From a virus: a DNA stretch of 64,000 nt. The DNA lies in the IMG/VR virus record IMGVR_UViG_3300012277_000051, positions 4,041 to 68,040 of that record. One strand, written 5' to 3'. Positions 14,871 through 48,406 of this stretch are shown here, in pieces; position 1 is the first letter of the stretch, and each line of letters starts with the position of its first letter. The position numbers and the translations under genes were made by a program. Below the pieces are notes generated by a model that was given only the letters and a program-made list of their open reading frames with translations, made no database searches and was not told the origin of the DNA.

Positions 14871-14943
14871 AAATAAATAAAGAAAACTGTTGACACGGTG
14901 AGAAATAAGTGATATAGTTACGTCAGAAGGAAATAAAGAAAAC
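14871..14943 (+). promoter_or_regulatory. motif-flanked promoter: AAATAAATAAAGAAAAC, then TTGACA-N17-TATAGT, then a second AAATAAAGAAAAC at the predicted transcript 5' end
   Basis: -35 at about 14890-14895, -10 at about 14913-14918; motif copies at 14871-14887 and 14931-14943. Confidence 0.6.
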
Positions 14944-14981
14944 CAAAAAACAGAATGGTATGAAAAGGAGGATATGTATAA

Positions 14982-15533
14982 GTGTCAATAGTAAAAGTGA
15001 TTGGAAATAATGTGTGTTTATTAAATAATGATAGGGTGGTTCACAGCAGGAGTATTGCGGAAACTATATATTGTGGAGAGGTGAGATATGCATATCTTCC
15101 AAAGATGCCTACTGTTGAGGGATTAAAGTTTCATATTCAAGAGAAGGCAAGACCTGTTTTGATCGTATCAAACAATGCTAATAATAGGGCTGCTAACGGA
15201 AACGTCCAGATTATTCCGTTTACATCAAAAGATAAGACCAGTTTACCAACTCATTTATCATTCAATGCAGGAGAATTTGGGCTTGCAGAGGATTCAATTT
15301 TGATGGCTGAGTGTGAGACGCAGATTCCAGCAACGTTTGTTTTTGAAAAAATTGGTGAAGTAAATGATAATAAAATCATTGAAGATATCGTCCAAACGAT
15401 AATTATTCAGCATGGGTTGTTTGCAAAACTTATGAAAAAGAGATATAATAAGTCGAATGTGAACCGATCAGTGTCTGATTATAAGGTTATCGAAGGGAGA
15501 AAACATAATGACTTCGAAAGAAATATTGGATAA
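14982..15533 (+). CDS. MazF/PemK-like endoribonuclease-fold protein with an extra C-terminal region
   Basis: RPVLIVSNNANNRAANGNVQIIPFTSK...LPTHLSF matches the PemK/MazF core; GTG start after aaggagg. Confidence 0.5.
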   Translation: MSIVKVIGNNVCLLNNDRVVHSRSIAETIYCGEVRYAYLPKMPTVEGLKFHIQEKARPVLIVSNNANNRAANGNVQIIPFTSKDKTSLPTHLSFNAGEFGLAEDSILMAECETQIPATFVFEKIGEVNDNKIIEDIVQTIIIQHGLFAKLMKKRYNKSNVNRSVSDYKVIEGRKHNDFERNIG

Positions 15534-16467
15534 TTTTTCGAAAATAGACTCAAAATCAACAACGGCAGCTAAATATATCAATGGACAGAATCCTTTTCAA
15601 TATGAGGAAGAATTTGGAGCAGACTTCATCAACTTTACTGACAAGATGATATCAGATATGTTGCTTGAGAAGAAGAGGTATTATAGATTATTCTACTTAT
15701 CGAAAGCAATAACATATTACCGTCAGTTTTATGACTACTGTATGAGTTGTGGATATATTAATTATAATCCTGTAAGTGATAATTCCATATATTTTACTTA
15801 TTCCTATATGTTGCAAAAAATTGTTAAACTCGGAAATGTAGAATTATATTCAAGAAATTATATTACGAGTAAGTGTAATGGGTTTGATGAAAATACTCCA
15901 TATTACAAGTCAATCGCCCTGTCCATCTATGAAGGGGTTAAAGACTATAACGCATTATCTAAGATAAAGTACAGTGATGTTGATTTTCAAAAAGGTACTA
16001 TTAAAGTTGCCGATGATCATATAAAAATATCAGAAGAATTGCTTCAGACATATAAAGACATGTATGATATGAATTCCTTTAAGAATATGTCAAGACAAGA
16101 ATACTTTTTATTTGATGATTCTATTGATTCTTTAATAAGACAGTTTCAGAAAAGAGGAGATGGAAAATCAAGCAATGACTTGGTTAGATTTGCAAGATTT
16201 ATGAGTTTGAAAATTGTTGAAACAGGATTAGACTGTAATTTTATTTATGACTCTGGATTGATATTTAGGTTATCAGAAATTCTTGGAAAAGAAAGATTGG
16301 TAGAAATTCTTGAATATGATAGTGGCTTAAGTAAAAAAGAAAAAATAGAGAATAATAAGGCTATGCAAGCTGCCCTTATAAAAGCAGGAAGCAATCTTCT
16401 GTGTAAAAACTTCTTGTTTGACTATAGAGTGTATGGCGTTTGTTTGAAAAATAATTTAATAAAATAA
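15508..16467 (+). CDS. hypothetical protein
   Basis: ORF track. Confidence 0.45.
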   Translation: MTSKEILDNFSKIDSKSTTAAKYINGQNPFQYEEEFGADFINFTDKMISDMLLEKKRYYRLFYLSKAITYYRQFYDYCMSCGYINYNPVSDNSIYFTYSYMLQKIVKLGNVELYSRNYITSKCNGFDENTPYYKSIALSIYEGVKDYNALSKIKYSDVDFQKGTIKVADDHIKISEELLQTYKDMYDMNSFKNMSRQEYFLFDDSIDSLIRQFQKRGDGKSSNDLVRFARFMSLKIVETGLDCNFIYDSGLIFRLSEILGKERLVEILEYDSGLSKKEKIENNKAMQAALIKAGSNLLCKNFLFDYRVYGVCLKNNLIK

Positions 16468-16514
16468 TCCTTGAGTTTAAACGTCTATTAATGGCGTTTA
16501 AATTTAAGGAACTG

Positions 16515-16531
16515 AAATAAATAAAGAAAAC
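16515..16531 (+). promoter_or_regulatory. 5'UTR copy of the AAATAAATAAAGAAAAC motif just upstream of the RBS of the 16549 gene
   Basis: Exact 17-mer, preceded by a hairpin at about 16476-16502. Confidence 0.5.
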
Positions 16532-16548
16532 CAAAATGGAGGAATATA

Positions 16549-16875
16549 ATGGCTGAAATCGTTGAAGAGATTTTAAGCAATCAATCAAGAGGTTGCATAA
16601 TTAGTATATTTACACCAACTGATAGTGATAAATACTTTATGAGAAAATATTGTGCAGCGATTAACAACAATGGTATGCATTTAATATTAAGAGATGATAA
16701 AAATAATGATTTAAGTATCAGCATTTCTATCGGTAATATTAAACTTCTGAATAAAGAGGAACTTTTTGATAATTCAATATTACTTGATTTTTTGACGGAA
16801 GACAATATTAGATATGAAATGTACATAGCCGATTCATTTTACTCAGCGGACATGCCTTTGGATCAAATGCCATAA
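16549..16875 (+). CDS. hypothetical protein
   Basis: ORF track; RBS ggagg. Confidence 0.45.
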   Translation: MAEIVEEILSNQSRGCIISIFTPTDSDKYFMRKYCAAINNNGMHLILRDDKNNDLSISISIGNIKLLNKEELFDNSILLDFLTEDNIRYEMYIADSFYSADMPLDQMP

Positions 16876-16906
16876 TTGATGGTGCATTTTTTAAAAACAT
16901 ACACAA

Positions 16907-16919
16907 AAATAAAGAAAAC
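16907..16919 (+). promoter_or_regulatory. 5'UTR copy of AAATAAAGAAAAC upstream of the 16936 gene
   Basis: Exact 13-mer followed by CAAAAG and the RBS. Confidence 0.5.
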
Positions 16920-16935
16920 CAAAAGCGAGGGTTAA

Positions 16936-17259
16936 ATGATTTCTTTCAAAGAACTAATAATGTCAAATCAATTAAAGGACATAGTTATTCATGTGGATTA
17001 TATGTCAGGTGAATGTGTGGAAGTTGATATAAAAAAATATAAGCTTTTTAAATGCGAAGAACCAGGACAAGCACTGGTGGTGGGCGATACCCCGATTCCA
17101 TCAATTAGAATATTTACAGATAATGTGGAGCTGTTGAGTAATGAAGAAATGCTGGGAAAAGTAATTGCAATAGAAGCCAGGCACAAAGATACATATTATA
17201 ACTTTTACATACATAGTGGGCTTGACTTTACGAAAACATCAATTGAAGATGTTGCTTGA
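16936..17259 (+). CDS. hypothetical protein
   Basis: ORF track; RBS gcgaggg. Confidence 0.45.
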   Translation: MISFKELIMSNQLKDIVIHVDYMSGECVEVDIKKYKLFKCEEPGQALVVGDTPIPSIRIFTDNVELLSNEEMLGKVIAIEARHKDTYYNFYIHSGLDFTKTSIEDVA

Positions 17260-17297
17260 AAATGCGTATTTTATTAGAAAAAACAGGAGGAAAGAAA

Positions 17298-17594
17298 ATG
17301 GGATATTACGGTAATAATGTCGAGCCAGAAAAGAAAATAGTAAAAATAAAGATTGAATTTGAAGCCATACCAATTAGACATATGGCTGTGCAATGCCCAG
17401 ATTGCAAAAACTGGTTTCATGGAGCCGACATTTATAAAGATGGCTGTAGCTATAAGCACGATATTTTTTGGAACGAATGTGAATGTCCAAAATGCGGAAG
17501 CCGGTTTATAGTATCGGAGAACAGCGATTTAGGTAGTGCTAATTTCCCAGAGTTTTATAAAGAATGTCTTCAGAAGAAAGAGGTGTGGGAATGA
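17298..17594 (+). CDS. zinc-ribbon protein (CPDCKNW...CECPKCG)
   Basis: Internal ATG after acaggaggaaagaaa. Confidence 0.4.
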   Translation: MGYYGNNVEPEKKIVKIKIEFEAIPIRHMAVQCPDCKNWFHGADIYKDGCSYKHDIFWNECECPKCGSRFIVSENSDLGSANFPEFYKECLQKKEVWE

Positions 17595-17833
17595 CTTTAG
17601 AAAAAGTTAACGAACTGATGGTGCTTTGTGAATTAGAGCAGTCAATCTTATGTTTGGGAAAAATTGAAGAGGCGAAAGAAGGCTACTTTGCTGATGAAAT
17701 TGAAAATCCTCGACTAGAAAAGTTCTATCGGCTACAAAACAAATACCATTATGGTTGGTATATAGCTCGTGATGATATAGATGAACAGATAGTACAGATC
17801 AATAAGTTTAAGGAGCATATTCTTAAACAATAA
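17591..17833 (+). CDS. hypothetical protein
   Basis: ATG after agaggtgtggga; overlaps the upstream stop. Confidence 0.35.
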   Translation: MTLEKVNELMVLCELEQSILCLGKIEEAKEGYFADEIENPRLEKFYRLQNKYHYGWYIARDDIDEQIVQINKFKEHILKQ

Positions 17834-17875
17834 TTGCGAACAAACTCGTGTTTGATTTAGAAAGTAGGTAATTAG

Positions 17876-19018
17876 ATGCCAATTGATGGGCGGTTAGGCT
17901 GGGATTTTAGGAGAGCTTTGGATGATAGGTTTTATGCAAGCTCTGGTATGTGTGGGAGAGATAATTATATTAAGTCATATAATTATAATCCAAAAGAATT
18001 CATTTTACATAAAATTGGAAGTGAAGATGATTTATATTTAGGCGTGGAACTTGAAATTGACGGTGGGGGAGAAGACGAAGAAAAGGCAAAACATGTTAAT
18101 AGTTGCATGAACCGGGAGCATGAGAATGTTTATTGTAAGCATGATGGTAGCCTAAACAATGGATTTGAAATAGTTACCCACCCCTGTACATTAGAATATC
18201 ATAAAGAATTGGAATATGATGAGTTGTTCTCATGGTTGATAAAAAATAAGTATCGTTCACACGATACATCTACTTGTGGGTTACATGTACATATTAACAG
18301 AACATATTTCGGCAATGATAAATTGTCTCAGGATTTGTGCATAAGCAAATTACTTTATCTGTTTGAGAAGTATTGGGACAAAGTTGAATTAGTGGCAAGA
18401 AGATCAAGTAATAAATACGCTAGAAGATTTTTACTTGAAGAAGATGAAACTCCCATCGATTTGTATGCAAAATCACAAGCTTCTGATAAATATGGTGCAA
18501 TAAATTTGAAACACAAAGATACCGTTGAGATACGAATTTTCAAAGGAACATTGAATTATAATACGTTTATTTCAACCTTGGAATTTGTGAATATTATGGC
18601 CTCAATATCTAAGCGCACTGATATTTACGAGATCCAGCTTGTTACGTGGGATAAGATTAAAGAGTGGTTTTCGGATAATCTTAATAGTTATATAGGTGAA
18701 AGAGAATCTGCTACTACGAATGAATTAAAGAATACCATTAAGTCAAATTCTAACGATCCATTCAGAAATTTTTATTACGATGGTTTTAATATGGGTATTG
18801 ACACCAGTGCTCTTGAATCTATGGTGACTACTTTATCTTCTCTCGGCTCAGAAAGTTCTACTGTGCATGAACTAACGGACGTAGAGCGAATCCAAAGAAA
18901 TATTACAGACTTAAGGAGACGTGTCAGAAGAAGCCGTAATGGTTTAGAGGAAAGAAGCATAAATAGAGAGATTGCAAGCTTGGAAGATGAACTACGGAGA
19001 ATAAGAAGGGCTATTTAA
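17876..19018 (+). CDS. putative amidoligase-like protein (glutamine-synthetase-like fold) with a C-terminal coiled coil; tentative
   Basis: GVELEIDGG...HDGSLNNGFEIVTHPCTLEY...CGLHVHIN pattern resembles the Amidoligase_2 family. Confidence 0.35.
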   Translation: MPIDGRLGWDFRRALDDRFYASSGMCGRDNYIKSYNYNPKEFILHKIGSEDDLYLGVELEIDGGGEDEEKAKHVNSCMNREHENVYCKHDGSLNNGFEIVTHPCTLEYHKELEYDELFSWLIKNKYRSHDTSTCGLHVHINRTYFGNDKLSQDLCISKLLYLFEKYWDKVELVARRSSNKYARRFLLEEDETPIDLYAKSQASDKYGAINLKHKDTVEIRIFKGTLNYNTFISTLEFVNIMASISKRTDIYEIQLVTWDKIKEWFSDNLNSYIGERESATTNELKNTIKSNSNDPFRNFYYDGFNMGIDTSALESMVTTLSSLGSESSTVHELTDVERIQRNITDLRRRVRRSRNGLEERSINREIASLEDELRRIRRAI

Positions 19019-19058
19019 AATAAAATCTTTGTTTACTAGTATGTGAAAGGAATAAAGT

Positions 19059-19274
19059 ATGGGAATAGAATGTAATAATAAAAAGTTTCCGCAAGATTGT
19101 ATTGGTTGTAGGAACTTCAGACATTTTGATATGTCAATTGACGATTACATAAATCAATGTACAAAACATAAGTGGCAGGTTGATGATAGTGATGCCTATG
19201 GGGTATTTGCAGAATTGTATTGTAGATATCAAGAAAAATGTTATGAGCCAAAAGGAGGAACATATGGGAGCTGA
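19059..19274 (+). CDS. Cys-rich hypothetical protein
   Basis: ORF track. Confidence 0.35.
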   Translation: MGIECNNKKFPQDCIGCRNFRHFDMSIDDYINQCTKHKWQVDDSDAYGVFAELYCRYQEKCYEPKGGTYGS

Positions 19275-19446
19275 TATTATTTCGGTGTTTAATCCACCGA
19301 AGGAAGAAATTCAATGTGCAGCTTGTGGGCATGTAGATGAAGTTGATAAGTTCAAAAATAGTTCAGTACATGGAAAATTTAAGATATGTCCCATATGCGG
19401 GACAGTAAGATTTTTATGTGAAGAGAATAAGGAATTTAGGAAGTGA
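19264..19446 (+). CDS. zinc-ribbon protein
   Basis: ATG after aaaggaggaacat; CAACGH...CPICG. Confidence 0.35.
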   Translation: MGADIISVFNPPKEEIQCAACGHVDEVDKFKNSSVHGKFKICPICGTVRFLCEENKEFRK

Positions 19447-19486
19447 ATTTTTAATCAAATCATTATTTGCTAAGGAGATAAAGATA

Positions 19487-19666
19487 TGTTTGATGAAAAG
19501 GAATGGAATGATAATCAGTGGATTGAAAGTGAACTTGTTCAAGATCATTTTAATATGACATTTTCCGAATGTTTTAAGGTGTTTGGATTTCATCGGCATG
19601 CAGAATGGAATAAGGCACCGTTGAACGGTCAAAGGATTACCACATATTTTAGGAGATATAAATAGT
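19487..19666 (+). CDS. small hypothetical protein (59 aa), not in the ORF track
   Basis: ATG after ctaaggagataaagat. Confidence 0.3.
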
Positions 19667-19711
19667 CAAAATTAGGATTTGCCTTAGTATCAGAAGATAG
19701 GAGATAAGTAC

Positions 19712-19987
19712 ATGAAGAGTATGCCGTATGAGATAAAACAAGAATTACGAAGTTATGCAAAATTGCAAACCAAGGCTGCCGCAAAGTATCTTAAGATACA
19801 GGAAATGATAGAGGAGTATGGGGTTCCAATCGAAAATCTCCTTGCTTGCGGGGATACTTCCTACGATGCACCACCTCAAACTGAGGGATTAGCATTTTTA
19901 AATAACTGTGAATGCAGTGACATAGAAGGAACCATTAAGGATATAGAAGATGTGTTTTTGTGGTTTATCGATAATCCACAAAACTGA
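19712..19987 (+). CDS. hypothetical protein
   Basis: ORF track; RBS aggagataag. Confidence 0.4.
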   Translation: MKSMPYEIKQELRSYAKLQTKAAAKYLKIQEMIEEYGVPIENLLACGDTSYDAPPQTEGLAFLNNCECSDIEGTIKDIEDVFLWFIDNPQN

Positions 19988-20034
19988 GATTTACATTCCA
20001 ATAGAAGGATAATTTTATATGGAAAGGGGATAAA

Positions 20035-20202: not shown

Positions 20203-20220
20203 ATTTGATGGAGGACTGAA

Positions 20221-20457: not shown

Positions 20458-20483
20458 AATCATGAATTTAAAGGAGAAATAAT

Positions 20484-20837: not shown

Positions 20838-20871
20838 GTTGAATAATAAACCAGATTAAAGGTGCATTTTA

Positions 20872-21066: not shown

Positions 21067-21131
21067 ATACCAAGCGAACCAGAATATTGATATTAAATCA
21101 ATAAGGATTTGTGAATCAAGAGGATGAACAA

Positions 21132-24893: not shown

Positions 24894-25436
24894 ATGAAGA
24901 ATATAAAGTTACCATTAATTATTTTAGCAGGAGTTGTAGCAACAATATTACTTTGTGTATTTGGAGTACAGGGTTCTCAAAATAGAGCAATCGCTTTAGA
25001 AGAACAAGTAAACACAGCATCTTCAGATATTAAAGTCCAGGAAAAACGTAGGGTAGACCTTGTATATAACCTTGCTGATTGTGTTAAGCAGTATGACAAG
25101 CATGAGGCAGAGACGCTTACAGCTATTGTCAATGGCCGTGGTTCAACCGGTGATATTGAAAACGTAACTACAGCAATTACGGCAGTCAGCGAAGCGTATC
25201 CAGAGTTGAAGTCAAACGAAAACTATAAACAGCTTATGAATGAATTGTCTATGACTGAAAACTTGATTGCGGAATATCGTAGCAATTACAATAAGCAGAT
25301 CAAAGAATATAACAGATATGTTCGTAAATTTCTAACTAGAACGTTCTTAGATATGCTTGGTTATGAAGTGCAGTATTATACATATTTGGACTATAACGCA
25401 CCTGTTGATGCTCCACAGAATCTCTTCAAGGATTAA
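24894..25436 (+). CDS. LemA-family membrane protein
   Basis: N-terminal TM helix, then EEQVNTASSDIKVQEKRRVDLVYNLADCVKQYDKHEAETL, the LemA signature. Confidence 0.7.
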   Translation: MKNIKLPLIILAGVVATILLCVFGVQGSQNRAIALEEQVNTASSDIKVQEKRRVDLVYNLADCVKQYDKHEAETLTAIVNGRGSTGDIENVTTAITAVSEAYPELKSNENYKQLMNELSMTENLIAEYRSNYNKQIKEYNRYVRKFLTRTFLDMLGYEVQYYTYLDYNAPVDAPQNLFKD

Positions 25437-29549: not shown

Positions 29550-29574
29550 TTTCATTGAATATGAAAGGAGAGTG

Positions 29575-29727
29575 TTATTTTTCAATACTCTCCACATAAT
29601 CAATAAGTATTTTAACCATCAGATTATTAAGACTTCTGTTATCCTGCTCTGCCAACTCTTCCAGTTTCATTTTTAATTCTGTCGGTAAGGTAATAATTGT
29701 TCTTGTTTTGTCGCTTCCAACTGCCAT
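29575..29727 (-). CDS. ribbon-helix-helix (CopG/Arc/MetJ-like) DNA-binding protein, divergent from the TnpB-like gene
   Basis: RTIITLPTELKMKLEELAEQDNRSLNNLMVKILIDYV is a beta-strand followed by two helices, typical of RHH. Start trimmed to the internal ATG preceded by AAAAGGAG; a hairpin at about 29567-29592 overlaps the stop. Confidence 0.6.
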   Translation of the reverse strand: MAVGSDKTRTIITLPTELKMKLEELAEQDNRSLNNLMVKILIDYVESIEK

Positions 29728-29855
29728 AATATCACGCTCCTTTTTATAAGATGATATCATGATGTAAAAAATATGTCAAGGTGATATCACTTTGATGTTG
29801 ACAATGTGATGTAATAGTGATATTATAGTGATATCACTAGAGAGGAGGTGAGAAG
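29726..29855. promoter_or_regulatory. divergent control region: TTGACA-N17-TATTAT promoter for the TnpB-like gene with two perfect GTGATATCAC palindromes (about 29781-29790 and 29828-29837) plus half-site-like copies (about 29752, 29817, 29726)
   Basis: -35 at about 29798-29803, -10 at about 29821-29826; RBS agaggagg; the palindromes flank and overlap the core promoter. Confidence 0.55.
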
Positions 29856-31115
29856 ATGTTAATACAAAGAGTAGAGCAGCAAGTTATAAGGAAATCTCAT
29901 CCAAAATACAAAATAATTGATGAGATGTGTTTCAGATCAAAAGATTTATATAACTATGCAAATTACATTATTCGTCAAGAGTTTATTTGCAAAGGTAATT
30001 ACATTGGCTATTACGATATGAACAAGGAACTCAAAACACATCAGCAATACAAGGACTGCATGAGCCAACCGGCAAATTGTATCCTGAGAAATTTAGACAA
30101 AGCATGGAAATCGTATTTTGCAGCCATTAAAGATTGGAAGAAAAATCCTGGAAAATATCTCGGCATGCCAAAGTTACCCAAATATCTCCATAAAGATGGC
30201 AGATATCCTTGGATGATTCCTAATAACAGTTGCTTCTACAATGATAATGGAACGATACGCTTTAAGATATCTCGTCTTCAGGGTTATATATGGAAATCAC
30301 AATGTTTTGGCAGATTAATTCAAATACGATTCATTCCAAAAGGTTCCTGTTACGTAATGGAAATAGTATATGAAATTGAAGTGTCAGACGAAAAAGAAAC
30401 AGAATCTAAACGAATTGCTTCTATAGATATTGGTGTAGACAATCTTGTAACTATGACAAATAATATCGGCGAACAGCCAATTATTATTAACGGCAAGGGA
30501 ATCAAAAGTATTAACCAATTCTATAATAAGCAGATTGGAAAAGAGAAAAGTTTATTAAAAATCAGACATAATAAAGATTGGAGTAAGAAACTTGATAATA
30601 TTTCATTCAAGAGAAACCAAAAGATTAAAAATTACATGCACAATGCAAGCACATATATTATAAGATGGTGTTTGGAAAATAATATTGATACTTTGGTTGT
30701 AGGTCATAATAAAGAATGGAAACAAGGATCTTCTATGAATAAGAAAAGTAACCAGAAGTTTATAATGATTCCGTTTAATATGTTGTTATGGCATCTTGAA
30801 TACAAGTGCCAGAATGTGGGAATCAAATTCATTCTTACAGAAGAAAGTTATACTTCTGGAACCAGTTTTCTTGATGGAGAAGATCCGGTCAAAAAGAATT
30901 ATGATAAATCAAGAAGAGTTCAGAGAGGATTATTTAAAAGTAATTCTGGAAGATTAATCAATTCAGATGTAAATGGTTCATTGCAGATTATGAAGAAAGT
31001 ATTTCCAAATGCATTTAATGAGTGCTATGGAATAGAGGGTGTTCTAGCCCCTATGGTTATAAGTGTTGCGAAAGTAGCACGATTTACTATAAATGCAATT
31101 GAAAAATTGCAATAG
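29856..31115 (+). CDS. TnpB-like (IS200/IS605 OrfB family) protein, apparently lacking the RuvC-II glutamate and all zinc-finger cysteines; candidate nuclease-dead TldR-like regulator
   Basis: ASIDIGVDNLVT (RuvC-I Asp present); LVVGHNKEW where VEDLN is expected; TSGTSFLDG...GLFKSNSG where CxxC...CxxC is expected; SDVNGSLQI (RuvC-III-like). No adjacent TnpA. Confidence 0.75.
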   Translation: MLIQRVEQQVIRKSHPKYKIIDEMCFRSKDLYNYANYIIRQEFICKGNYIGYYDMNKELKTHQQYKDCMSQPANCILRNLDKAWKSYFAAIKDWKKNPGKYLGMPKLPKYLHKDGRYPWMIPNNSCFYNDNGTIRFKISRLQGYIWKSQCFGRLIQIRFIPKGSCYVMEIVYEIEVSDEKETESKRIASIDIGVDNLVTMTNNIGEQPIIINGKGIKSINQFYNKQIGKEKSLLKIRHNKDWSKKLDNISFKRNQKIKNYMHNASTYIIRWCLENNIDTLVVGHNKEWKQGSSMNKKSNQKFIMIPFNMLLWHLEYKCQNVGIKFILTEESYTSGTSFLDGEDPVKKNYDKSRRVQRGLFKSNSGRLINSDVNGSLQIMKKVFPNAFNECYGIEGVLAPMVISVAKVARFTINAIEKLQ

Positions 31116-31137
31116 AAGTGTAGTTTTATAGAGTTAC
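31094..31137 (+). ncRNA. candidate 3' scaffold end of a TnpB-associated guide RNA: hairpin gcaatt-gaaa-aattgc overlapping the stop, then a short tail ending at TTAC immediately before the repeated phage motif
   Basis: Position and hairpin match where TnpB omega-RNA scaffolds end; not confirmed. Confidence 0.25.
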
Positions 31138-31213
31138 AAATAAATAAAGAAAACTATTGACAAGCACCAGAATAGGTGTTATCATTATGAATGTAATGAT
31201 AAATAAAGAAAAC
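31138..31213 (+). promoter_or_regulatory. motif-flanked promoter: AAATAAATAAAGAAAAC, then TTGACA-N17-TATCAT, then AAATAAAGAAAAC at the transcript 5' end
   Basis: -35 at about 31157-31162, -10 at about 31180-31185; motif copies at 31138-31154 and 31201-31213. Confidence 0.55.
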
Positions 31214-31232: not shown

Positions 31233-31346
31233 ATGAAGGGAAAGAAAACAGAATTTGCATGGTTCAAAAGTATTATGAGTAAGGTGAAGAAGAACAAGCC
31301 AGAGATCGCAGCCAATGGAAAGGTTAAATGGGGAGCTGGTAAGTAG
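31233..31346 (+). CDS. small basic hypothetical protein (37 aa)
   Basis: ATG after aaaaggagaaataagca; first ORF downstream of the motif promoter. Confidence 0.25.
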   Translation: MKGKKTEFAWFKSIMSKVKKNKPEIAANGKVKWGAGK

Positions 31347-31367
31347 AGAGGAGGTAATCGATTTAAA

Positions 31368-31550
31368 ATGGGAAGATTCTTAATCTTCATAGGTGTTACA
31401 TTACTATTAATATTGTTCGGGCTAATTATTTGCTGGATTGGCAACAAAATATACATAGTTATGAAACGCGAGAACAGAAAATTTGATATTGAAAATCAAG
31501 CCTACGATAAGGCAGTTAAAGAAATCAAAAACTATAAAGGAGAAAATTAA
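31368..31550 (+). CDS. small single-TM membrane protein
   Basis: FLIFIGVTLLLILFGLIICWIG. Confidence 0.4.
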   Translation: MGRFLIFIGVTLLLILFGLIICWIGNKIYIVMKRENRKFDIENQAYDKAVKEIKNYKGEN

Positions 31551-31553
31551 TTT

Positions 31554-32453
31554 ATGAAAACAAAGATTTTTGGAGGAATGGTAATTGCGGCAGCGTTGAT
31601 CGGAGGGATTTATACGGTCATGTCATTGACTAAAATTAATCAGGGAGAAGTTGGAGTTGTTTACTCTATGGGAAGTGGTGTTCAGAAGGAAACGTTGTCA
31701 CCCGGATTTCATTTTGTTGGGCCATTCGATAAGGTGAAGGAGTTCCCAATCTCGCAGCAACAGTTGGTACTAAGCAACAACCCGTCTGACTATAACAAAA
31801 AAGAACACGCCGATTGGCACGTTGACGCTCCAGCAAATGGAGGCATGGTAAAAATGAATCTAACTATTAACTATAATTTTATGGCTGACAAAGTGGTGGA
31901 CCTCTATTCAAAATTTAACGGAATGGACGGAGAGACAATAGTCGATAATATGGTTCAGAATTCCATTATTGCATATGTTAAGGAAGTTACCCCTCAGTTT
32001 TCAGTTATGGATATTTACAGCACCAAGCGTTCCGAGGTGGGAAAGTCAATTACTGATTATCTTAATAACAAGCTTAATGACGAGTATGGAATCAATGTTT
32101 CCAGCGCATTAATTATTGATGTACAGTTAGATGAAGCATTGCAAGCAAAGATTCAGGCAAAAGAACAGGCTAAACAAGATGCAGAAAAAGCGGATTTGGA
32201 TAGACAGACAGCTCAGGCACAAGCGGAAGTATCCAAGGTAAACGCCGACACAGATGCAGAAGTTCAGAGAATTAAAGCAGAAGCTGACGCTGAAAAAACA
32301 AGAATTGCAGCTAAGGCGGAAGCCGATGCAAACGCAATGTTGAGCAATTCAATCACTCCGGAGTTAATCCAGATGAAAGAGGCCGAAGCAAGATTGAAAC
32401 ATGGTTGGGTTACTACACAGGGAGCCAGCACCGTAGTTTCTAACCCACAGTAA
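31554..32453 (+). CDS. SPFH/band-7 (stomatin/prohibitin-like) domain protein
   Basis: N-terminal TM helix, then the SPFH core and an Ala/Glu/Lys-rich coiled-coil tail. Confidence 0.8.
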   Translation: MKTKIFGGMVIAAALIGGIYTVMSLTKINQGEVGVVYSMGSGVQKETLSPGFHFVGPFDKVKEFPISQQQLVLSNNPSDYNKKEHADWHVDAPANGGMVKMNLTINYNFMADKVVDLYSKFNGMDGETIVDNMVQNSIIAYVKEVTPQFSVMDIYSTKRSEVGKSITDYLNNKLNDEYGINVSSALIIDVQLDEALQAKIQAKEQAKQDAEKADLDRQTAQAQAEVSKVNADTDAEVQRIKAEADAEKTRIAAKAEADANAMLSNSITPELIQMKEAEARLKHGWVTTQGASTVVSNPQ

Positions 32454-32610
32454 GGATATTGTATAATGAAAATTAGTTTATTTGATGGGTTCTTTGCTTT
32501 TAACATTGATTGGAAGGCAGTAGTGGCAATGTCGGCAGCGTCAGTATTAATCAATGTGTTGAGTTAATCAAATTGTGATTTTCTTGTAAAAATGGAGGTG
32601 GTTTAAAAGC

Positions 32611-40865: not shown

Positions 40866-43800
40866 TTGTATAGTGCTTTACATAGTCATACCCATTATAG
40901 CTTGCTTGATGGGTATGCAACACCAGAAGAATACCTTAATAGAGCAAGAGAAATTGGTCTAAAAGCTTTTGCAATAACAGAGCACGGAAACGAATATAGC
41001 TGGTGTTATTTTGATAAACTGAAAGAAAAATATCCTGAAATCAAAATAATATATGGTGTTGAATTTTATGAATGTTTCGATATTAATGTTAAGGATAAGG
41101 AAAGTAAATATTTCCACCTAATTGTTCTGGCTAAGAATGAAAATGGAAGAAAGGCAATTAACAAACTTGTAACCAAATCTAATTTTGAGGGATTATATTA
41201 CAAGCCAAGAGTAGACTTGAATTGCTTTAGAGAATTGGAATGTGGCGACGATATTATAGTTACATCGGCATGTCTTGCGTCAAAGATATCACATGAATCA
41301 GACTTTAATAAGTGCCTTGAATACATAAGAGAATATAAAAATGTATTTCCCAATTTTTACCTTGAAATGCAGTCACATTCACATGTTGACCAGGAAATGT
41401 ACAATAAAAAAATATTGCAGCTTTCTCTTGATAGTAACACTCCATATGTAATAACAACTGACTCTCATGCTGCTACCAAAGAGGATTTATATTATCAGGC
41501 CAGGCATGTTCAAATAGCTCACGACACTGAAACTATGAGTGAAATATATGAGGGATGTTATTTACAGTCAGAAGAAGAAATTCATGAAATAATGGACATT
41601 CAGGTCGGGGCTGACGTTGTAGAAACCGGGTTGAGAAACACAAACGTAATAGCAGATATGATTGATGATGTGAAAATGCCGTTCCAATCTCCTAAACTAC
41701 CTACATTTCCGTTACCAAAGGAATTTGAATCAAATTATGATTATTTGAAACATCTTGTTGACGATGGTTGGTATAGGCGGGGGTTTGATAAGTTTGATGA
41801 TGTCAAGCAGAGAGAGTATAAAGAAAGAATAGATTATGAATTGAATATTATTCATACCATGGGATTTGATGGTTACTTCTTGATAGTATGGGATTTTATT
41901 AATTATGCTAGAAGTAAAGATGTAATGGTTGCCCCTGGAAGAGGTAGTTGTGCAGGTAGCTTAGTATGTTATTCCTTACATATAACAGATTTAGACCCAA
42001 TAAAATATGGCCTCATTTTTGAAAGATTCCTAAATCCAGAACGTATATCTATGCCAGATACAGATACAGATGTTTCAAATCGTGAAATCGTAATCAATTA
42101 TCTTATTGAAAAATATGGTGAAAATCGTGTTTGTCAGATTATTAATTTTTCATATATTACACCTGTTGTTGCAATTAAAGATGTTGGTAAGGTGCTTGGA
42201 TTTGGGTATACAGAAATGGATAAATTAAGCAAGAAGTTTTCATATGATACCTTCGATGAATGTTTGAAAAACAACGCTAAATTGGTGTCAGAGAATTCTA
42301 AGTACAGTGAATTATTTGATATTGCGGGGAAACTTAGCGGTAGAATAAAAACCGTTTCATGTCATGCCGGTGGCGTTGGGATAGTTGATACTGACATTTC
42401 CGACTACATGGCAATGAAACTTGGTGGTGACGGAGAGCATGTAATACAAGTTGATAAGCGGCTTATAGAGGAAATAGGAATAATTAAGTTTGATATCCTT
42501 GGAGTACAGACGTTAAATATGATTAAAGAAGCTCAGAAGGACATTGGACTGAGAGAATACGACATTAATATAAATAACCCAATTTTTGAATGTGATAGCA
42601 AATCGTATAAATTACTTTGCGATGCAATGACAAATGGGATTTTTCAGGTAGAAAGTAGTGGGATGAAAGATCTACTGTTTCGTCTTGAACCAAGCTCATT
42701 AGAAGATTTATCGGCAGTACTTGCATTATACAGACCGGATTCTATGGGGGAACTTGAAGATTATATTGAAAGAAAACATGGAAGAAAGCCAATTACATAT
42801 ATCCACCCAGATATGAAGCCTATACTTGAAACGACTTATGGCTGCTTGATTTACCAGGAACAGCTTTTAGATATTGTAAGAAAGTTCGCAGGTAGAAGTT
42901 ATGGTGGTGCTGACCTCTTCAGAAAAGCAATAGGAAAAAAGGATAAAGAATTAGTCGTTAGAGAGTCGGATAAGTTGTATCAAGAAATAATTGACAATGG
43001 TTATGATGAAAAAATTGCCAAACAGATAAGTGATGAAATGAGAGAGAAAGGAGGATATCTGTTTAATAGATCACACTCATTTAGTTATGCGGTGATATGT
43101 TTTCAAACTGCATTTTTAAAAACATATTATCCAATTTATTTCTTTAAGGCACTTTTCAACTTGAATAAAGATAAAGCAGGAATGATTAATAAATATATCA
43201 TAGATGCCAAGAATTTTAAAATTGACATTAAACCTCCCAGTATAAATAAATCTGTTGTAAACTTTTCCATATTTGAAAATGATATATTATTTGGGCTATC
43301 TGCTATTAAAGGTATTGGGGCGTCATTTGCAGAAGATATTATTACAAAAAGAGGAACAGGATTTGAATCTATGGCTGCATTTATTGATATTGTAAATCCC
43401 AAAAAGAGCCAAGTAATATCATTAATAAAATCTGGAGCGATTCCATCAAATGACAAAAAGAAAAGCTTAATTAAATATTTGAAATCGTTATATGAGCCAT
43501 TAACATTTTCGGAAGTTGTAACCTTGCCAAAATATCAGTCTCTTGTAGATGATTGGGGTATCGATATTGAAAAGTACAGAACTGGTAGCAAAAAATATGA
43601 TTATGATAAGATTACATTGCTTAGTGAATATAATAAGAAAAAACGCGAAATGTTTGATATCCAACAGGAGGAACGATACAAGAAGCATATAGATGATAAT
43701 AGTAAGTATTTAGATAACGAAGCATTCTGGGAATTTGAATCGTTACAAATTTTCATTAATAACAATCCGTTTGACAATGCCTATAATTTTATAACACCAT

Positions 43801-44096
43801 TTGAAGATATTGAAGTAGGTGACAAATGTACCATTGTAGGAATAATTGCAAAGGTTGAAAAGAAGAAAGATAGACATAAAAAACAGTTTGCATTCATTAA
43901 CATTTACTCATCGTTTGGTCTTGTAGAGGGGATTGTATGGCATACACAATTGAAAGAATATGAAGACTTGGTAAAGAAAGGACAGCAACTTGCTCTGCTT
44001 GTAAAAAAAGATGGAGAAGACAAGGTAATAGTAGAAAAGATGAAGGGGTATAACATTTGGTTGGATCAGATGCGTCAGAAAGGAGTGGCTGTTTAA
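40866..44096 (+). CDS. dnaE: DNA polymerase III alpha subunit (PHP domain, polymerase core, OB fold)
   Basis: N-terminal LHSHTHYSLLDGYATPEEY PHP motif; 1076 aa. Confidence 0.9.
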   Translation: MYSALHSHTHYSLLDGYATPEEYLNRAREIGLKAFAITEHGNEYSWCYFDKLKEKYPEIKIIYGVEFYECFDINVKDKESKYFHLIVLAKNENGRKAINKLVTKSNFEGLYYKPRVDLNCFRELECGDDIIVTSACLASKISHESDFNKCLEYIREYKNVFPNFYLEMQSHSHVDQEMYNKKILQLSLDSNTPYVITTDSHAATKEDLYYQARHVQIAHDTETMSEIYEGCYLQSEEEIHEIMDIQVGADVVETGLRNTNVIADMIDDVKMPFQSPKLPTFPLPKEFESNYDYLKHLVDDGWYRRGFDKFDDVKQREYKERIDYELNIIHTMGFDGYFLIVWDFINYARSKDVMVAPGRGSCAGSLVCYSLHITDLDPIKYGLIFERFLNPERISMPDTDTDVSNREIVINYLIEKYGENRVCQIINFSYITPVVAIKDVGKVLGFGYTEMDKLSKKFSYDTFDECLKNNAKLVSENSKYSELFDIAGKLSGRIKTVSCHAGGVGIVDTDISDYMAMKLGGDGEHVIQVDKRLIEEIGIIKFDILGVQTLNMIKEAQKDIGLREYDININNPIFECDSKSYKLLCDAMTNGIFQVESSGMKDLLFRLEPSSLEDLSAVLALYRPDSMGELEDYIERKHGRKPITYIHPDMKPILETTYGCLIYQEQLLDIVRKFAGRSYGGADLFRKAIGKKDKELVVRESDKLYQEIIDNGYDEKIAKQISDEMREKGGYLFNRSHSFSYAVICFQTAFLKTYYPIYFFKALFNLNKDKAGMINKYIIDAKNFKIDIKPPSINKSVVNFSIFENDILFGLSAIKGIGASFAEDIITKRGTGFESMAAFIDIVNPKKSQVISLIKSGAIPSNDKKKSLIKYLKSLYEPLTFSEVVTLPKYQSLVDDWGIDIEKYRTGSKKYDYDKITLLSEYNKKKREMFDIQQEERYKKHIDDNSKYLDNEAFWEFESLQIFINNNPFDNAYNFITPFEDIEVGDKCTIVGIIAKVEKKKDRHKKQFAFINIYSSFGLVEGIVWHTQLKEYEDLVKKGQQLALLVKKDGEDKVIVEKMKGYNIWLDQMRQKGVAV

Positions 44097-46358
44097 TTGT
44101 CATATGAAGAAGATGAAGTTTTTGAATTTAAGGCATTGATTACTTATGAAAGATATTATTCGGAAGATACGTCGTGGGGAGTATTTGGATTCTCCACGAA
44201 AGACGAAATTCCTCACTATGTAATACCAAGTAAATCGGAAGATGCTTTTGGAATAGAAACCAGTGGATCAAAGATGAGTACATTGTCGGGACGAATGCAA
44301 CATTTACTTGAAGGAGCGGAATATCAAGTAAAAGCTAAATACAAATTGGATAAGACTTATGGACATCAATATGTTCCTATATCCGCATATGCTTTAATTC
44401 CACAAAGCAAGGAAATGCAATTAGTGTTCTTGAAATCTTTAATAAATCCATGGATTGCAGAGAACTTATTAAATGCATACCCCAACGTTGTCAATGATGT
44501 GGCGAACGGAACTTTGAAAGATATTGATTATAGTCACGTGAAAGGTGTTAGGGAAATTACATGGAGTAGAATTAAGGAAAAGATAATTAATAACTATCTT
44601 ATTTCAGACATTGTCATGATGTTGAAACCACTGGGTGTCACATATACAATGATTAAAAAATTATTGTCAGATGAGCCTAATCCAGTACTTTTAAAAGAAG
44701 AATTGGAGAAAAACCCATATATACTTACAAGGATTAATGGACTTGGATTTAAACGGATAGATGAACTTGCTCTAAGAATGAAGCCTGATCTGGTTGACTC
44801 CACAGAACGGCTAGTTGCTTTTGTAAAATACTATTTAACAGACCTAGGTGATAGTAAGGGTCATACATGGGTTTCTAAAAAGATACTGTCAGGGGCAGTA
44901 TCAAATATTGTACCCGAGTGTAGCAATAAATTTGAATGGATGATAAATAACAGTGATTTTTTACATATAAATGAAGAGAAGATTGGGTTGAAATATTATT
45001 ATGACATAGAGATGAAAATATTCAGTATTCTTATGTCGAAAGCAATAAAGGAAACTCCAGTTGTATTAAGTAATGAAATCATAGAAAAATCTATAAATGA
45101 AGCAGAAAACGAACAAGGGTTTAAGTACGTAATTGAGCAATTAGACACTATAAATTCTACGCTTGCTAGGACTGTAAGTTTAATTACAGGTAAGGCGGGA
45201 ACCGGAAAGACTTCTATAATGAGAGCCGTAGTCAGAGCATACATGAATGGAAATTATACAATCACAGCTTCGGCGTTATCAGCTATGGCAGCACAAAGAA
45301 TTACTGAAGCAACTGGTTTTCCTGCAATGACTATTCATAGGACTCTTGGCTGTAAAGGGGTAAATGATTTTTCATTTAATATTGATAACCATATGATCAC
45401 TGATGTAGCTTTTCTTGATGAAGGTAGTATGGTGAATGCTAGTTTATTTCTTGATTGGCTTGAAGCAATAGATGACTGTACTCGTATTATAATCTCTGGT
45501 GACCATAAGCAACTTCCACCAATAGGATTTGGAAATGTATTTTCTGATTTAATTGAAATGTTTGATGACACTGTAGTAAGTAAACTTATAAAGCCCATGA
45601 GACAGGCAGAACAATCAGGTATTTTAGTTGACGCAAATCTAATACGTGATAACAAAAATCCAATTTCAGAGAAGCTACAACCGAGGATAGTCCATGGTGA
45701 ATTACAGGATATGTATTATATGTTCAGGAATAATAGACAGTCGCTTTTTGACATTGCAGTCAAAACATTCGTCAAAACAGTAGAATCAGATGGGATTGAT
45801 AATGTAGTCATTGCTGTACCAAGAAGAAAAGATTGCTTGAATAGCACTTTTGAATTAAATAAAAAGATTCAAGAAGAGTTATTACATTATGAGACGAGAG
45901 AGATATCAGGAAATGATATTGATTTCAAAATGGGCGCAAGAGTAATGCAGACCGTTAATGATTATGAGAAAAATGTATTCAATGGCGAAATCGGATACAT
46001 TACGCAAATTGATGAAAGATATGAAGGAAAAAAGAAAGAAGAGTATTGTGTGGTAACATACATTGATAATCTTGGTCATGAAAAAAATATAGAGTATATC
46101 AAGAAAGAGTTATCTGCACTGGATTTGGCATATGCGATGACAGTACATAAGTTACAGGGAGCCGGTAGGAAAATTGTAATAGGAATAATTGATAATACAC
46201 ACAGCCAGTTGTTAGATAACTGCATGTTATACACGTTGCTTACAAGAGCGAAGAAGAGATGTCTTTTACTTGCCGAACCAGATGCATTTCTTCAATGCAT
46301 TAGAAAAAGTCATAACAAGCGTAATACATGGATACAGCTTCAAAATAATATTGCTTAA
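44097..46358 (+). CDS. RecD-like SF1 DNA helicase
   Basis: Walker A GKAGTGKTS; motif VI AMTVHKLQGAGRK. Confidence 0.8.
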   Translation: MSYEEDEVFEFKALITYERYYSEDTSWGVFGFSTKDEIPHYVIPSKSEDAFGIETSGSKMSTLSGRMQHLLEGAEYQVKAKYKLDKTYGHQYVPISAYALIPQSKEMQLVFLKSLINPWIAENLLNAYPNVVNDVANGTLKDIDYSHVKGVREITWSRIKEKIINNYLISDIVMMLKPLGVTYTMIKKLLSDEPNPVLLKEELEKNPYILTRINGLGFKRIDELALRMKPDLVDSTERLVAFVKYYLTDLGDSKGHTWVSKKILSGAVSNIVPECSNKFEWMINNSDFLHINEEKIGLKYYYDIEMKIFSILMSKAIKETPVVLSNEIIEKSINEAENEQGFKYVIEQLDTINSTLARTVSLITGKAGTGKTSIMRAVVRAYMNGNYTITASALSAMAAQRITEATGFPAMTIHRTLGCKGVNDFSFNIDNHMITDVAFLDEGSMVNASLFLDWLEAIDDCTRIIISGDHKQLPPIGFGNVFSDLIEMFDDTVVSKLIKPMRQAEQSGILVDANLIRDNKNPISEKLQPRIVHGELQDMYYMFRNNRQSLFDIAVKTFVKTVESDGIDNVVIAVPRRKDCLNSTFELNKKIQEELLHYETREISGNDIDFKMGARVMQTVNDYEKNVFNGEIGYITQIDERYEGKKKEEYCVVTYIDNLGHEKNIEYIKKELSALDLAYAMTVHKLQGAGRKIVIGIIDNTHSQLLDNCMLYTLLTRAKKRCLLLAEPDAFLQCIRKSHNKRNTWIQLQNNIA

Positions 46359-46372
46359 TACGGAGGGAATGA

Positions 46373-48322
46373 ATGACAGATATCTCAAGAATCAAGGAGC
46401 TGACAAGGCTCCTGAATCACTACAGAAACGAATACTACAATAAAAATAATTCTGAAATCAGCGACCAGGAGTACGACAAACTGTTTGATGAGCTGAAACA
46501 AAAAGAAGATAAAACAGGTTTTTGCTTGGCAAATTCACCGACTCAATCAGTAGGATATTTGGTGCAGAGCAAACTACAGAAGAGTGTTCATGAATATCCG
46601 ATGTTATCCCTGGACAAAACAAAATCACCAGATGAGTTGTTGAAATTTGCTGGTGGCCGAAAATCAATTTTAATGCTGAAGTTGGACGGGCTGACCGTTT
46701 GTATTACATATGAAAATGGTGTGTTGGTTAAAGGCGAGACTCGTGGCGATGGTTTCATTGGCGAAGATATCACCGAAAATGTGAAAACATTCTGCAATGT
46801 TCCACTTACAATTCCATATAAAAAGAAACTCGTCGTGTTTGGCGAAGCAATTATTGATTACAATACATTCTATGAAATCAATGGTGAATTGTCTGATGAT
46901 AAGAAATACAAGAATCCAAGAAATCTGTGTAGTGGAACAGTAAGACAGTTGGATAGTAAAATATGTGCAGATAGAAATGTAAAATTTGTTGCTTGGAGAT
47001 TGGTTGATGGAAGCCAAAGCAATTATTTTTCTGAAAGATTGTGCGAATTAGAGTCGTATGGATTCGAAGTTGTTTCATGGAGTTTGCTTGCTGGGAATAT
47101 CGAAGAACAATTAATGAGTATGAAGAAAGACGCGGATGAAATCGGATTACCTATTGACGGCTGCGTTGTATCTTATACAGATATTTCCTACATGGAATCG
47201 CTTGGAGCCACATCGCATCATTTAAGAGGACAGCTTGCTTTTAAGTATGCAGAAGATCAGGAGTCTTCAATATTAAGAGAAATCGAGTGGTCTATGGGTA
47301 AGACTGGTAATTTAACACCTGTTGCAATATTCGATCCGGTAGAACTTGCTGGAACTACAGTCAGTCGTGCGTCCCTACATAATATCAGTATAATGAAGGA
47401 TTTAGATATCAAAGTTGGTGCTAATGTAACGGTAGTTAAGAAAAACGAGATTATACCACAGATCATCGAATGCGATGCCGATAAGTCAGACTTTGAAATT
47501 CCTGACACATGTCCAGTGTGTGGAGGTATGACTGCTATAGTCAAAGATAATAACACAGAAGTGCTTACCTGCACCAACCCTGGCTGTAAAGGAAAGTTGC
47601 TTGGTAGGCTTACACATTATTCTAGTAAAAATGCATTGAATATTGACGGGTTATCTGAAGCCACGCTAGAAAAGTTCATGGAATTAGGTTGGCTAAATCA
47701 ACTATCAGATATTTACACATTAGATTCCCATAAAGAAAAAATGGTCAAATTAGATGGTTTCGGCAAGAAATCAGCAGAGAAGTTGTTAGCAGCAATTGAA
47801 AAATCAAAGAATACTACACTTGAACGATATCTCTATGGATTATCTATCGCCCTGATTGGCAAGACGGCCAGCAAAACTATCAGTAAGCAATTCAATGGAG
47901 ATTATTCAAAATTCATCGAGGCGTTAGAAGATGGCTTTAACTTTATGCATCTCAACGATTTTGGAGCAACTATGAATAATAGTATCCATGCATGGTACGA
48001 AAAATATAGCGATTCAGGGGACGCTTATATTCCAACGCTGCTTGATTTTGAGAAGCCGAAAGCAGTTATAGTTGCTGATAATAAAAAAGATTTATCAGGA
48101 ATGGTATTTGTAATCACCGGGAACTTGACGCATTATTCCAATAGGAACGAATTGGTTGAAGCGATTGAACGACTAGGTGGTAAAGTATCAGGATCAGTAT
48201 CAGTGAAAACTACTTACCTCATCAATAATAGCCTGGAAAGTAATTCTGGGAAAAATAAAAAGGCAAAAGAACTTGGAGTGTCTATTATATCAGAAGAAGA
48301 ATTTATGTCCATGATAAAATAA
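46373..48322 (+). CDS. ligA: NAD-dependent DNA ligase
   Basis: KLDG adenylation motif (LMLKLDGLTV), Cx2C zinc finger, C-terminal BRCT domain. Confidence 0.9.
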   Translation: MTDISRIKELTRLLNHYRNEYYNKNNSEISDQEYDKLFDELKQKEDKTGFCLANSPTQSVGYLVQSKLQKSVHEYPMLSLDKTKSPDELLKFAGGRKSILMLKLDGLTVCITYENGVLVKGETRGDGFIGEDITENVKTFCNVPLTIPYKKKLVVFGEAIIDYNTFYEINGELSDDKKYKNPRNLCSGTVRQLDSKICADRNVKFVAWRLVDGSQSNYFSERLCELESYGFEVVSWSLLAGNIEEQLMSMKKDADEIGLPIDGCVVSYTDISYMESLGATSHHLRGQLAFKYAEDQESSILREIEWSMGKTGNLTPVAIFDPVELAGTTVSRASLHNISIMKDLDIKVGANVTVVKKNEIIPQIIECDADKSDFEIPDTCPVCGGMTAIVKDNNTEVLTCTNPGCKGKLLGRLTHYSSKNALNIDGLSEATLEKFMELGWLNQLSDIYTLDSHKEKMVKLDGFGKKSAEKLLAAIEKSKNTTLERYLYGLSIALIGKTASKTISKQFNGDYSKFIEALEDGFNFMHLNDFGATMNNSIHAWYEKYSDSGDAYIPTLLDFEKPKAVIVADNKKDLSGMVFVITGNLTHYSNRNELVEAIERLGGKVSGSVSVKTTYLINNSLESNSGKNKKAKELGVSIISEEEFMSMIK

Positions 48323-48335
48323 ACTTGATAGATAT

Positions 48336-48406
48336 AAATAAAGAAAACCATTGACAGGAGATTGTTATGGTGATATTATTAATTCATAGTAATAAATAAA
48401 GAAAAC
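48336..48406 (+). promoter_or_regulatory. motif-flanked promoter for the tRNA: AAATAAAGAAAAC, then TTGACA-N17-TATTAT, then AATAAATAAAGAAAAC
   Basis: -35 at about 48351-48356, -10 at about 48374-48379; motif copies at 48336-48348 and 48391-48406. Confidence 0.55.

Follow-up and report, generated by a model that had tools for sequence, protein, structure and literature searches.

A 13 bp asymmetric element at dispersed early promoters of an SPbeta-like Lachnospiraceae prophage, and a candidate integrase-fold repressor

The DNA analysed here, referred to as the window, is a 64,000 nucleotide (nt) stretch (positions 4,041 to 68,040) of the IMG/VR virus record IMGVR_UViG_3300012277_000051, and we are concerned with a 13-mer, AAATAAAGAAAAC, that is present in eight exact copies in the window, and with a nearby gene for a 319 residue protein (p319) that is a candidate for the repressor recognizing it. 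The window genes lie on the + strand, with a ribbon-helix-helix (RHH) gene beside a TnpB-like gene described as divergent. Replication functions are provided by a YorF-like single-stranded DNA-binding protein, a Sak4-like ATPase, DnaB, a primase, RecJ and PolIII-alpha, and further genes encode a RecD-like helicase, NAD-ligase, RNA ligase, NrdD and dUTPase. Also encoded are several ParB-like proteins, an Xer-like recombinase, PemK/MazF-like and TnpB-like proteins and a tRNA-Gln, and the genes named in an original prediction made from the sequence alone (MazF/PemK-like, SPFH, tRNA-Gln and TnpB-like) had been correctly recognized. Near-identity searches of the region against deposited phage and plasmid collections found no close relative, and the closest characterized DNA polymerase is 35% identical. 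Judged by its ligase homologues, the genome is that of a prophage of Lacrimispora sphenoides, with a more distant counterpart in Clostridium sp. ASBs410. In the L. sphenoides assembly GCA_900105215.1 the prophage lies around 3.28-3.40 Mb. The gene order YorF (PF27337)-YorG-(H)-YorI-YorJ-YorK-YorL is that of the SPbeta replication module, tblastn links the window to SPbeta yorI-yorL, and a YonO-like RNA polymerase and a tail tube protein resembling YomU are present in distant relatives; this gene order and these genes in relatives identify the window as part of a distant SPbeta-like prophage of Lachnospiraceae.

The eight copies begin at 14875, 14931, 16519, 16907, 31142, 31201, 48336 and 48394, exactly where the original prediction had put them, and all are on the + strand. 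The expected number by chance is 0.03, and none of 100 dinucleotide-preserving shuffles reached eight, so that the A-rich composition does not account for their distribution. When one or two mismatches are allowed there are 18 matches in total, i.e. 10 beyond the exact ones, against a background of 12.4 expected; these 10 are in coding sequence or resemble chance matches, and the 13-mer is therefore an all-or-none, exact sequence. The eight exact copies are confined to the non-coding 8.5% of the window (the copy at 31201 is counted as non-coding, the gene reported to overlap it being a spurious open reading frame, ORF). A longer form, AATAAATAAAG, occurs four times, in agreement with the earlier count of extended copies, and these motif families are the top direct repeats of the window, in which no other multi-copy repeat family is of note. 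The whole element spans about 17-19 bp, aaatAAATAAAGAAAACYR, with the 13-mer as its core, and is not palindromic. It is a real, functional-looking cis element and, as was originally stated, not a CRISPR array.

The copies fall into three pairs, each astride a sigma-A promoter and referred to here as cassettes 1, 2 and 3, and two single sites, s3 and s4, that lie before Shine-Dalgarno (SD) sequences. These features and the genes adjoining cassette 1 are as follows.

14875..14887, + strand: upstream motif copy of cassette 1, ending 2 nt before the -35
14890..14918, + strand: sigma-A promoter of cassette 1, TTGACA-17-TATAGT with a TG extension
14931..14943, + strand: downstream motif copy of cassette 1, 12 nt past the -10, at about +5 to +18 of the transcript
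14982..15533, + strand: PemK/MazF-like gene of 183 amino acids (aa) (PF02452, 7.9e-11), first in the cassette 1 operon, overlapping the start of p319
15508..16467, + strand: p319, MrpR/YopR/SroF-like integrase-fold protein, second gene behind cassette 1, candidate repressor
16468..16510, + strand: perfect hairpin of 18 bp directly 3′ of the p319 stop codon, free energy -24.3 kcal/mol, z -5.4, without a T-tract
16519..16531, + strand: single motif copy s3, 6 nt 5′ of the SD of gene 16549-16875
16549..16875, + strand: small gene p108, directly 3′ of the p319 gene, of no known family
16907..16919, + strand: single motif copy s4, 7 nt 5′ of the SD of gene 16936-17259
16936..17259, + strand: small gene p107, 98-99% conserved in motif-carrying relatives
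31142..31154, + strand: upstream motif copy of cassette 2
31157..31185, + strand: promoter of cassette 2, TTGACA-17-TATCAT with TG
31201..31213, + strand: downstream motif copy of cassette 2, 15 nt past the -10 and 6 nt 5′ of an SD
48336..48348, + strand: upstream motif copy of cassette 3, 14 nt past the ligase stop codon
48351..48379, + strand: promoter of cassette 3, TTGACA-17-TATTAT with TG
48394..48406, + strand: downstream motif copy of cassette 3, followed by a hairpin and then tRNA-Gln (48432-48505)

Each upstream copy ends 2 nt before TTGACA, which bears out the earlier claim that three copies abut the -35 of strong promoters, and the three cassette promoters (14890, 31157 and 48351) are among the few in the window that match 11/12 consensus positions and have an extended -10. 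A second copy had also been described past each -10 at 6-12 nt; it is present at all three promoters, but at distances of 12, 15 and 14 nt, and the start-to-start spacing of the paired copies is 56, 59 and 58 nt in cassettes 1, 2 and 3 respectively. The extended form TTACAAATAAATAAAGAAAAC at the upstream copy of cassette 1 begins at 14867. Cassette 2 heads a small gene (31233-31346), the SPFH gene and the YorF-YorL-like replication genes. Alignment of four cassettes (the fourth is from relatives, see below) shows the motif, the -35 and the extended -10 as their only common parts; with unrelated spacers, the cassettes are not simple duplicates. A mobile promoter cassette generating a 13 bp target duplication was considered and rejected, the inner sequences being unrelated. 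The hairpin at 16468-16510 is probably an operon boundary.

A convincing -35/-10 was sought 5′ of the copies at 16519 and 16907 and none was found, as the original prediction had it. Five of the eight copies lie in predicted 5′ leaders, three of them only 6-7 nt before an SD, and the motif could act in RNA, as a processing or stability site (a target of the PemK/MazF-like protein or of RNase Y) or as a ribosome standby site or enhancer. The adjacent MazF-like gene, the strong hairpin that s3 follows and the unpaired state of the motif in every predicted leader fold would suit such a role, but the three copies at a fixed 2 nt before a -35 have no RNA rationale, and in one leader the copy is followed by a tRNA instead of an ORF, so that the motif is no mere translation element. 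The sites of known MazF proteins are 3-7 nt long, shorter than the invariant 13, and the same placements in SPbeta are those of protein-bound DNA (by ChAP-seq). We regard action in RNA as unlikely, and the RNA-level options raised originally found no support. An antitermination site, which was among them, is not indicated either, since the leaders contain no boxB-like hairpin at the motif and an Rfam scan gave the tRNA as its sole match, with no RNA family at the motif.

The motif was followed by pattern scans in relatives of 75-95% nucleotide identity, which comprise two IMG/VR contigs of ~115 kb (one of them the L. sphenoides prophage) and metagenomic fragments. These relatives keep all three cassettes and both single sites. 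They have in addition a fourth cassette, located on the opposite strand, from which a ParB-N-like gene and others are driven (in L203, these others are genes of 283 aa and 603 aa), and the motif therefore follows the direction of transcription. Among orthologous sites none of 104 motif columns is variable, compared with 81 of 400 in the flanks (Fisher p = 2e-9), and the same invariance (0/65 columns) is seen at five sites outside the search pattern; the 5′ flanks of the copies vary. In the motif-carrying relatives p319 is 96-99% identical, as against 81-85% for the integrase. A leftward extension of the window (L197) matched a mosaic relative without the motif, and a scan of genome contigs for the motif joined to TTGACA gave single chance matches only.

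These data bear on an explanation in which no dedicated factor is involved, the upstream copies being UP elements and the rest reflecting shared cassette ancestry kept for strong expression. The upstream copies are A-rich and lie at -50 to -38, so that for them the UP-element reading in the original prediction holds as regards position, and 7/9 positions of AAAGAAAAC agree with the proximal UP consensus, AAAAAARNR. A-rich initial transcribed regions are common, and unrelated Firmicute and phage promoters carry AAAAATAAAGAAAAC-NN-TTGACA singly, at roughly the chance rate. The remaining copies do not fit: 5/8 are past a -10 or lack a promoter and so are not confined to the UP position of -40 to -60, and the presence of the identical 13-mer past the -10 and at the promoter-less s3 and s4 is left unexplained. 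Nor does this account for the complete lack of degenerate copies or for invariance amid drifting neighbours in cassettes that are otherwise alike only in their hexamers, exact conservation over 13 nt not being a property of UP elements. It is very unlikely to be the whole explanation.

The relatives also bear on the idea that the motif serves phage transcription machinery, such as a YonO-like RNA polymerase or a phage sigma factor, or is the target of a TnpB guide. SPbeta-like phages encode YonO, with a homologue in L211, and the TnpB gene ends only 27 nt before cassette 2. However, the early and replication genes behind the motif already have consensus sigma-A promoters, and a gene for such a polymerase or sigma factor was not found in the window. 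As for the guide-target proposal, for which co-variation with TnpB among relatives had been suggested as a check, the TnpB module is absent from every motif-carrying relative. Homology to the relatives resumes at 31110, and the presumed omega-RNA guide (about 31116-31135) is therefore not the motif; its position is unique in the window, there is no conserved flank resembling a target-adjacent motif (TAM), and a TnpB guide target was rejected. Both forms of this explanation are extremely improbable.

We note several further features of relatives. Mosaic junctions between relatives fall at or beside cassettes (29552-31110 and 31356-32454; L185 1-10000); for example, homology resumes ~30 nt before cassette 2, and in the L. 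sphenoides prophage the ligase and cassette 3 are the same but the replication module is different. Conserved cassettes may act as linkers for recombination. Upstream of the fourth cassette (L203 8300-9500) there is ~1.3 kb of non-coding, repeat-rich DNA that may be an origin or partition region. A related phage contains a 27 nt tandem repeat array inside a DUF7666 gene (L191 1283-1530).

Two other promoters of the window likewise have an operator on either side, each with a different palindromic site, which fits action of the 13-mer at the DNA level, and the original prediction of a phage-specific regulatory element or operator is supported. The key neighbour overlooked in that prediction is a putative repressor gene of the MrpR/SroF type within the operon of the first cassette. 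The SPbeta master repressor MrpR (also YopR or SroF), a protein of tyrosine-recombinase fold without recombinase activity, binds an element, SPBRE, at about 10 SPbeta promoters (PMC10516654), and the phi3T SroF monomer wraps an asymmetric 26 bp box with two A-tracts, its sites being distributed genome-wide (bioRxiv 10.1101/2025.11.27.690993). The SroF contact residues are K233, F234, H237, R238, Q300 and K304.

The start of the p319 gene is overlapped by the PemK-like gene. An exhaustive HMMER search placed p319 in a small family of ~310-330 aa proteins (about 40 clusters at 50% identity), for which an alignment was built from cluster representatives only. The family profile matches Xer recombinases among Protein Data Bank (PDB) sequences, and hhalign aligns it with SPbeta YopR over 219 columns (92% probability, E-value 6.4e-7). 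With this alignment AlphaFold gives a model of p319 with a predicted local distance difference test score (pLDDT) of 95.7 and a predicted template-modelling score (pTM) of 0.90 (pLDDT is 42 from the single sequence), and in a Foldseek search with the model phi3T SroF and SPbeta MrpR/YopR are the top matches, with XerA, Tn1549 Int, XerD and Cre ranking below them. At the catalytic positions p319 has Y-E-G-V at Arg-I and Y-D-S-G replacing HxxR, and among 35 family members there is no conserved His, Arg or Tyr column. From the loss of catalytic residues and the SroF/MrpR-like fold we take p319 to be a catalytically dead integrase-fold protein, best explained as a remote, highly diverged and newly recognized member of the SroF/MrpR repressor family. 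The pairing of the PemK/MazF-like gene with p319 is kept in close relatives and in L209, where the homologue is 43% identical (the pair lies at L209 9514-10963), and the overlap of the two genes is kept as well. YopM, the first product of the SPbeta repressor operon, acts on the host MazE/MazF system, which suggests a recurring link between SroF-type repressors and MazF toxins.

Together these observations make it likely, though by no means certain, that the 13-mer is an operator of the prophage master repressor, with p319, as a protein of the MrpR/SroF type, the best candidate. The regulator could instead be a host factor or another phage protein, such as a ParB/KorB-like or helix-turn-helix (HTH) protein or the Xer-like recombinase encoded at 5624-6652. 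There are several ParB-like genes in the window and a ParB-N-like gene behind cassette 4, motif-carrying relatives conserve the recombinase at 5624, and p319 binding is itself inferred. The operators of ParB/KorB and HTH proteins are, however, usually palindromic and the motif is not; the XRE-type HTH protein at 12291 (similar to SPbeta YonR) is missing from motif-carrying relatives and was rejected as the binder; and the recombinase is a catalytically intact, ordinary Xer/Int protein that matches Pfam Phage_integrase and lacks similarity to YopR, so that it too was discarded as an MrpR analogue. A GmrSD-like protein (7133-8266) was also considered as a repressor and rejected. No family but that of p319 is known to have monomers that read asymmetric A-tract boxes, and p319 itself sits in the cassette 1 operon; a different regulator is accordingly a rather unlikely candidate.

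Diverged lineages show what is constant in this arrangement. In L209 a promoter has GTTACATATTAAAC 2 nt before its -35 and GTTACAAATGAAATTAAAAC 11 nt past its -10, and a hairpin (about 10970-10996), at the same place as that of the window, precedes the next gene together with a related element. In L211, whose homologue is 33% identical, the adjoining promoter has TAATGTATTTAAAAC 2 nt before TTGACT and TAATGTATTTAAAAT 10 nt past the -10, with a spacing of 56. The ASBs410 orthologues of cassettes 2 and 3 carry GAAWWTAHAAACC with a spacing of 58, and a stretch of 17 nt is the same in both of their downstream copies. What is kept across lineages is therefore the geometry, and the element itself differs from one lineage to the next. 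In L210 (about 1200-1270) and L211 (about 10965-11030) the gene after the repressor has a consensus promoter and a LexA box, GAAC-N4-GTTC (GAACAAACGTTC and GAACGGATGTTC respectively), which is the arrangement described for sar, and the window lineage has motif copies there instead. Beside the repressor region of L211 there is also a 692 aa protein (6919-8997) whose Pfam RdRP (PF05183) match identifies it as a YonO-like single-subunit RNA polymerase.

Several observations weigh against p319 as the protein that reads the 13-mer. The two are linked by homology, adjacency and analogy, from which binding and repression are deduced. Identity of p319 to MrpR/SroF is only 12-17%, and it has no match at E ≤ 0.01 in Pfam, including MrpR_N_CB and MrpR_C_cat, for which YopR scores 484 bits; among the window ORFs scanned with the Pfam MrpR models there was likewise no match. 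Only 13-14 bp are invariant here, compared with the 24 bp read by SroF. Co-variation of element and repressor across lineages is loose. A-rich elements resemble each other by chance: the ASBs410 elements match the window motif at 9/13 positions and each other at 10-11/13, and similar elements accompany two homologues with a mutual identity of only 37%. In relatives, the motif itself served to locate the upstream copies, so that their exactness is partly a matter of ascertainment, and the count of eight refers to the 64 kb window, the left ~50 kb of the phage genome lying outside it. There is no intergenic LexA box in the window (one intragenic chance match only). The gene p107 occupies the position of the antirepressor Sar in SPbeta/phi3T, and a search of p107 and p108 against PDB for similarity to solved Sar or YopT structures found nothing.

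If p319 is the master repressor, one monomer would in a lysogen occupy -50 to -38, against the -35 and in the position of an UP element, and would occlude this region, and a second would lie at about +5 to +20, where it would hinder promoter escape or early elongation; the paired monomers would shut each strong early sigma-A promoter. The promoters under such control would be those of the repressor/PemK, replication and tRNA/nucleotide-metabolism operons and, in relatives, of a fourth, leftward operon. Since its own gene lies behind cassette 1, p319 would be negatively autoregulated. By analogy with 'stoperators', the hairpin, s3 and s4 could act as roadblocks that keep read-through out of downstream lytic genes. 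A bolder proposal, which we consider improbable, is that the motif is used doubly, as a DNA operator and as 13 nt read in RNA, at the start of each early transcript and before the two genes that follow the repressor gene, for instance by the PemK/MazF-like endoribonuclease. This would provide a second, post-transcriptional lock on the lytic genes by an endoribonuclease whose gene is translationally coupled to that of the repressor. In a weaker version, the single sites would be roadblocks built from a recombinase-fold protein, which is undescribed for the MrpR/SroF family.

Some other features of the window deserve mention. The TnpB-like gene (419 aa, OrfB_IS605 and TNB; module 29570-31115) has no TnpA, and its own consensus promoter lies between two GTGATATCAC palindromes; beside it is the divergent RHH gene (56 aa) with a promoter of its own. 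The entire module is missing from all relatives, and its appearance is that of a TnpB under regulation, perhaps domesticated, and not of an ordinary insertion sequence. An HTH_3 gene (84 aa, 2166-2420) is preceded by a TTGACA-17-TAATAT promoter flanked by two copies of TGTAAGGTTAA (2079-2142 in all), the second of which belongs to an imperfect palindrome, TGTAAGGTTAACGTTACA, and this site is probably a classical autoregulated operator. The prophage also encodes a GGDEF diguanylate cyclase, a peptide deformylase, a LemA-family protein and an SPFH/Band-7 protein (1042-1920, 2323-2859, 24894-25436 and 31554-32453 respectively), the SPFH gene being absent from close relatives.

SroF/MrpR-type repressors have so far been described only in SPbeta-like (arbitrium) phages of Bacillus and have been called unique among phage repressors. 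The locus described here suggests that the same logic operates in large prophages of gut and anaerobe Lachnospiraceae, with homologues too diverged for current family models, and it would represent the extension of a Bacillus phage control system to gut Clostridia rather than a new kind of element. It offers a testable pair of operator and repressor and a simple rule for finding early promoters and immunity groups, and the family provides naturally occurring repressors of differing box specificity that could be compared or reused.

Phage operators with comparable properties are known from other systems. In mycobacteriophage L5, repressor-binding sites both repress early promoters and stop elongating transcripts (PMC1934351). 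The site of the L5/L1 repressor gp71 is, like the element described here, 13 bp long, asymmetric and present in many near-identical copies, and s3 and s4, as intergenic sites of one orientation without a promoter, resemble stoperators. The L5 sites occupy short gaps between genes and have a single orientation with respect to transcription, and there are ~30 of them as against eight here (10 in relatives). Unlike p319, to which it is unrelated, gp71 is an HTH protein; no gp71-like HTH repressor was found in the window, in which the sole XRE HTH protein near the cassettes is the one absent from motif-carrying relatives. Non-palindromic operators are also used by P1 C1, phi105 and P2 C, either dispersed (P1) or as direct repeats around a promoter (P2 and phi105) (PMC1934351, PMC2995052), and the motif shares this lack of symmetry; these repressors differ, however, in having HTH folds and other spacing rules, and are not homologous to p319.

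The closest parallels are with SPbeta and phi3T. In phi3T the small antirepressor Sar is encoded one ORF 3′ of the repressor gene and is under LexA control (10.1101/2025.11.27.690993), whereas no arbitrium genes, LexA box or recognizable Sar were seen in the window. The hosts also differ (Bacillus as opposed to Clostridia of the Lachnospiraceae), as do the element sequences, a 15 bp MEME motif and a 26 bp box in SPBRE/Phi3TRE compared with an invariant core of 13 bp here, and only in the system described here does a PemK/MazF-like gene accompany that of the repressor. The likenesses begin with the protein, in both cases a catalytically dead tyrosine-recombinase-fold protein of ~320 aa, and with the presence of an element in the repressor's own operon (here cassette 1, 14875-14943) in a phage with an SPbeta-like replication module. 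From the SPbeta sequence SPBRE is roughly ACAAATACAAAWAATATGTATA, asymmetric, A-rich and always co-oriented with the gene that it precedes, and both here and in SPBRE/Phi3TRE an asymmetric, A-tract-rich element is found at dispersed early promoters in the direction of transcription, before the -35, past the -10 and before the SD, or both. SPBRE lies just before the -35 at aimR, across the spacer and -10 at yonP, yorZ, yosX and yorE, and past the -10, directly before the SD, at yopV and yopM. At yonX it is present on both sides of the promoter, in the order element, TTGATT...TATAAT, element, SD; this is the same architecture as that of the cassettes, and the two-copy arrangement that is the exception in SPbeta is the rule in the Lachnospiraceae prophage.

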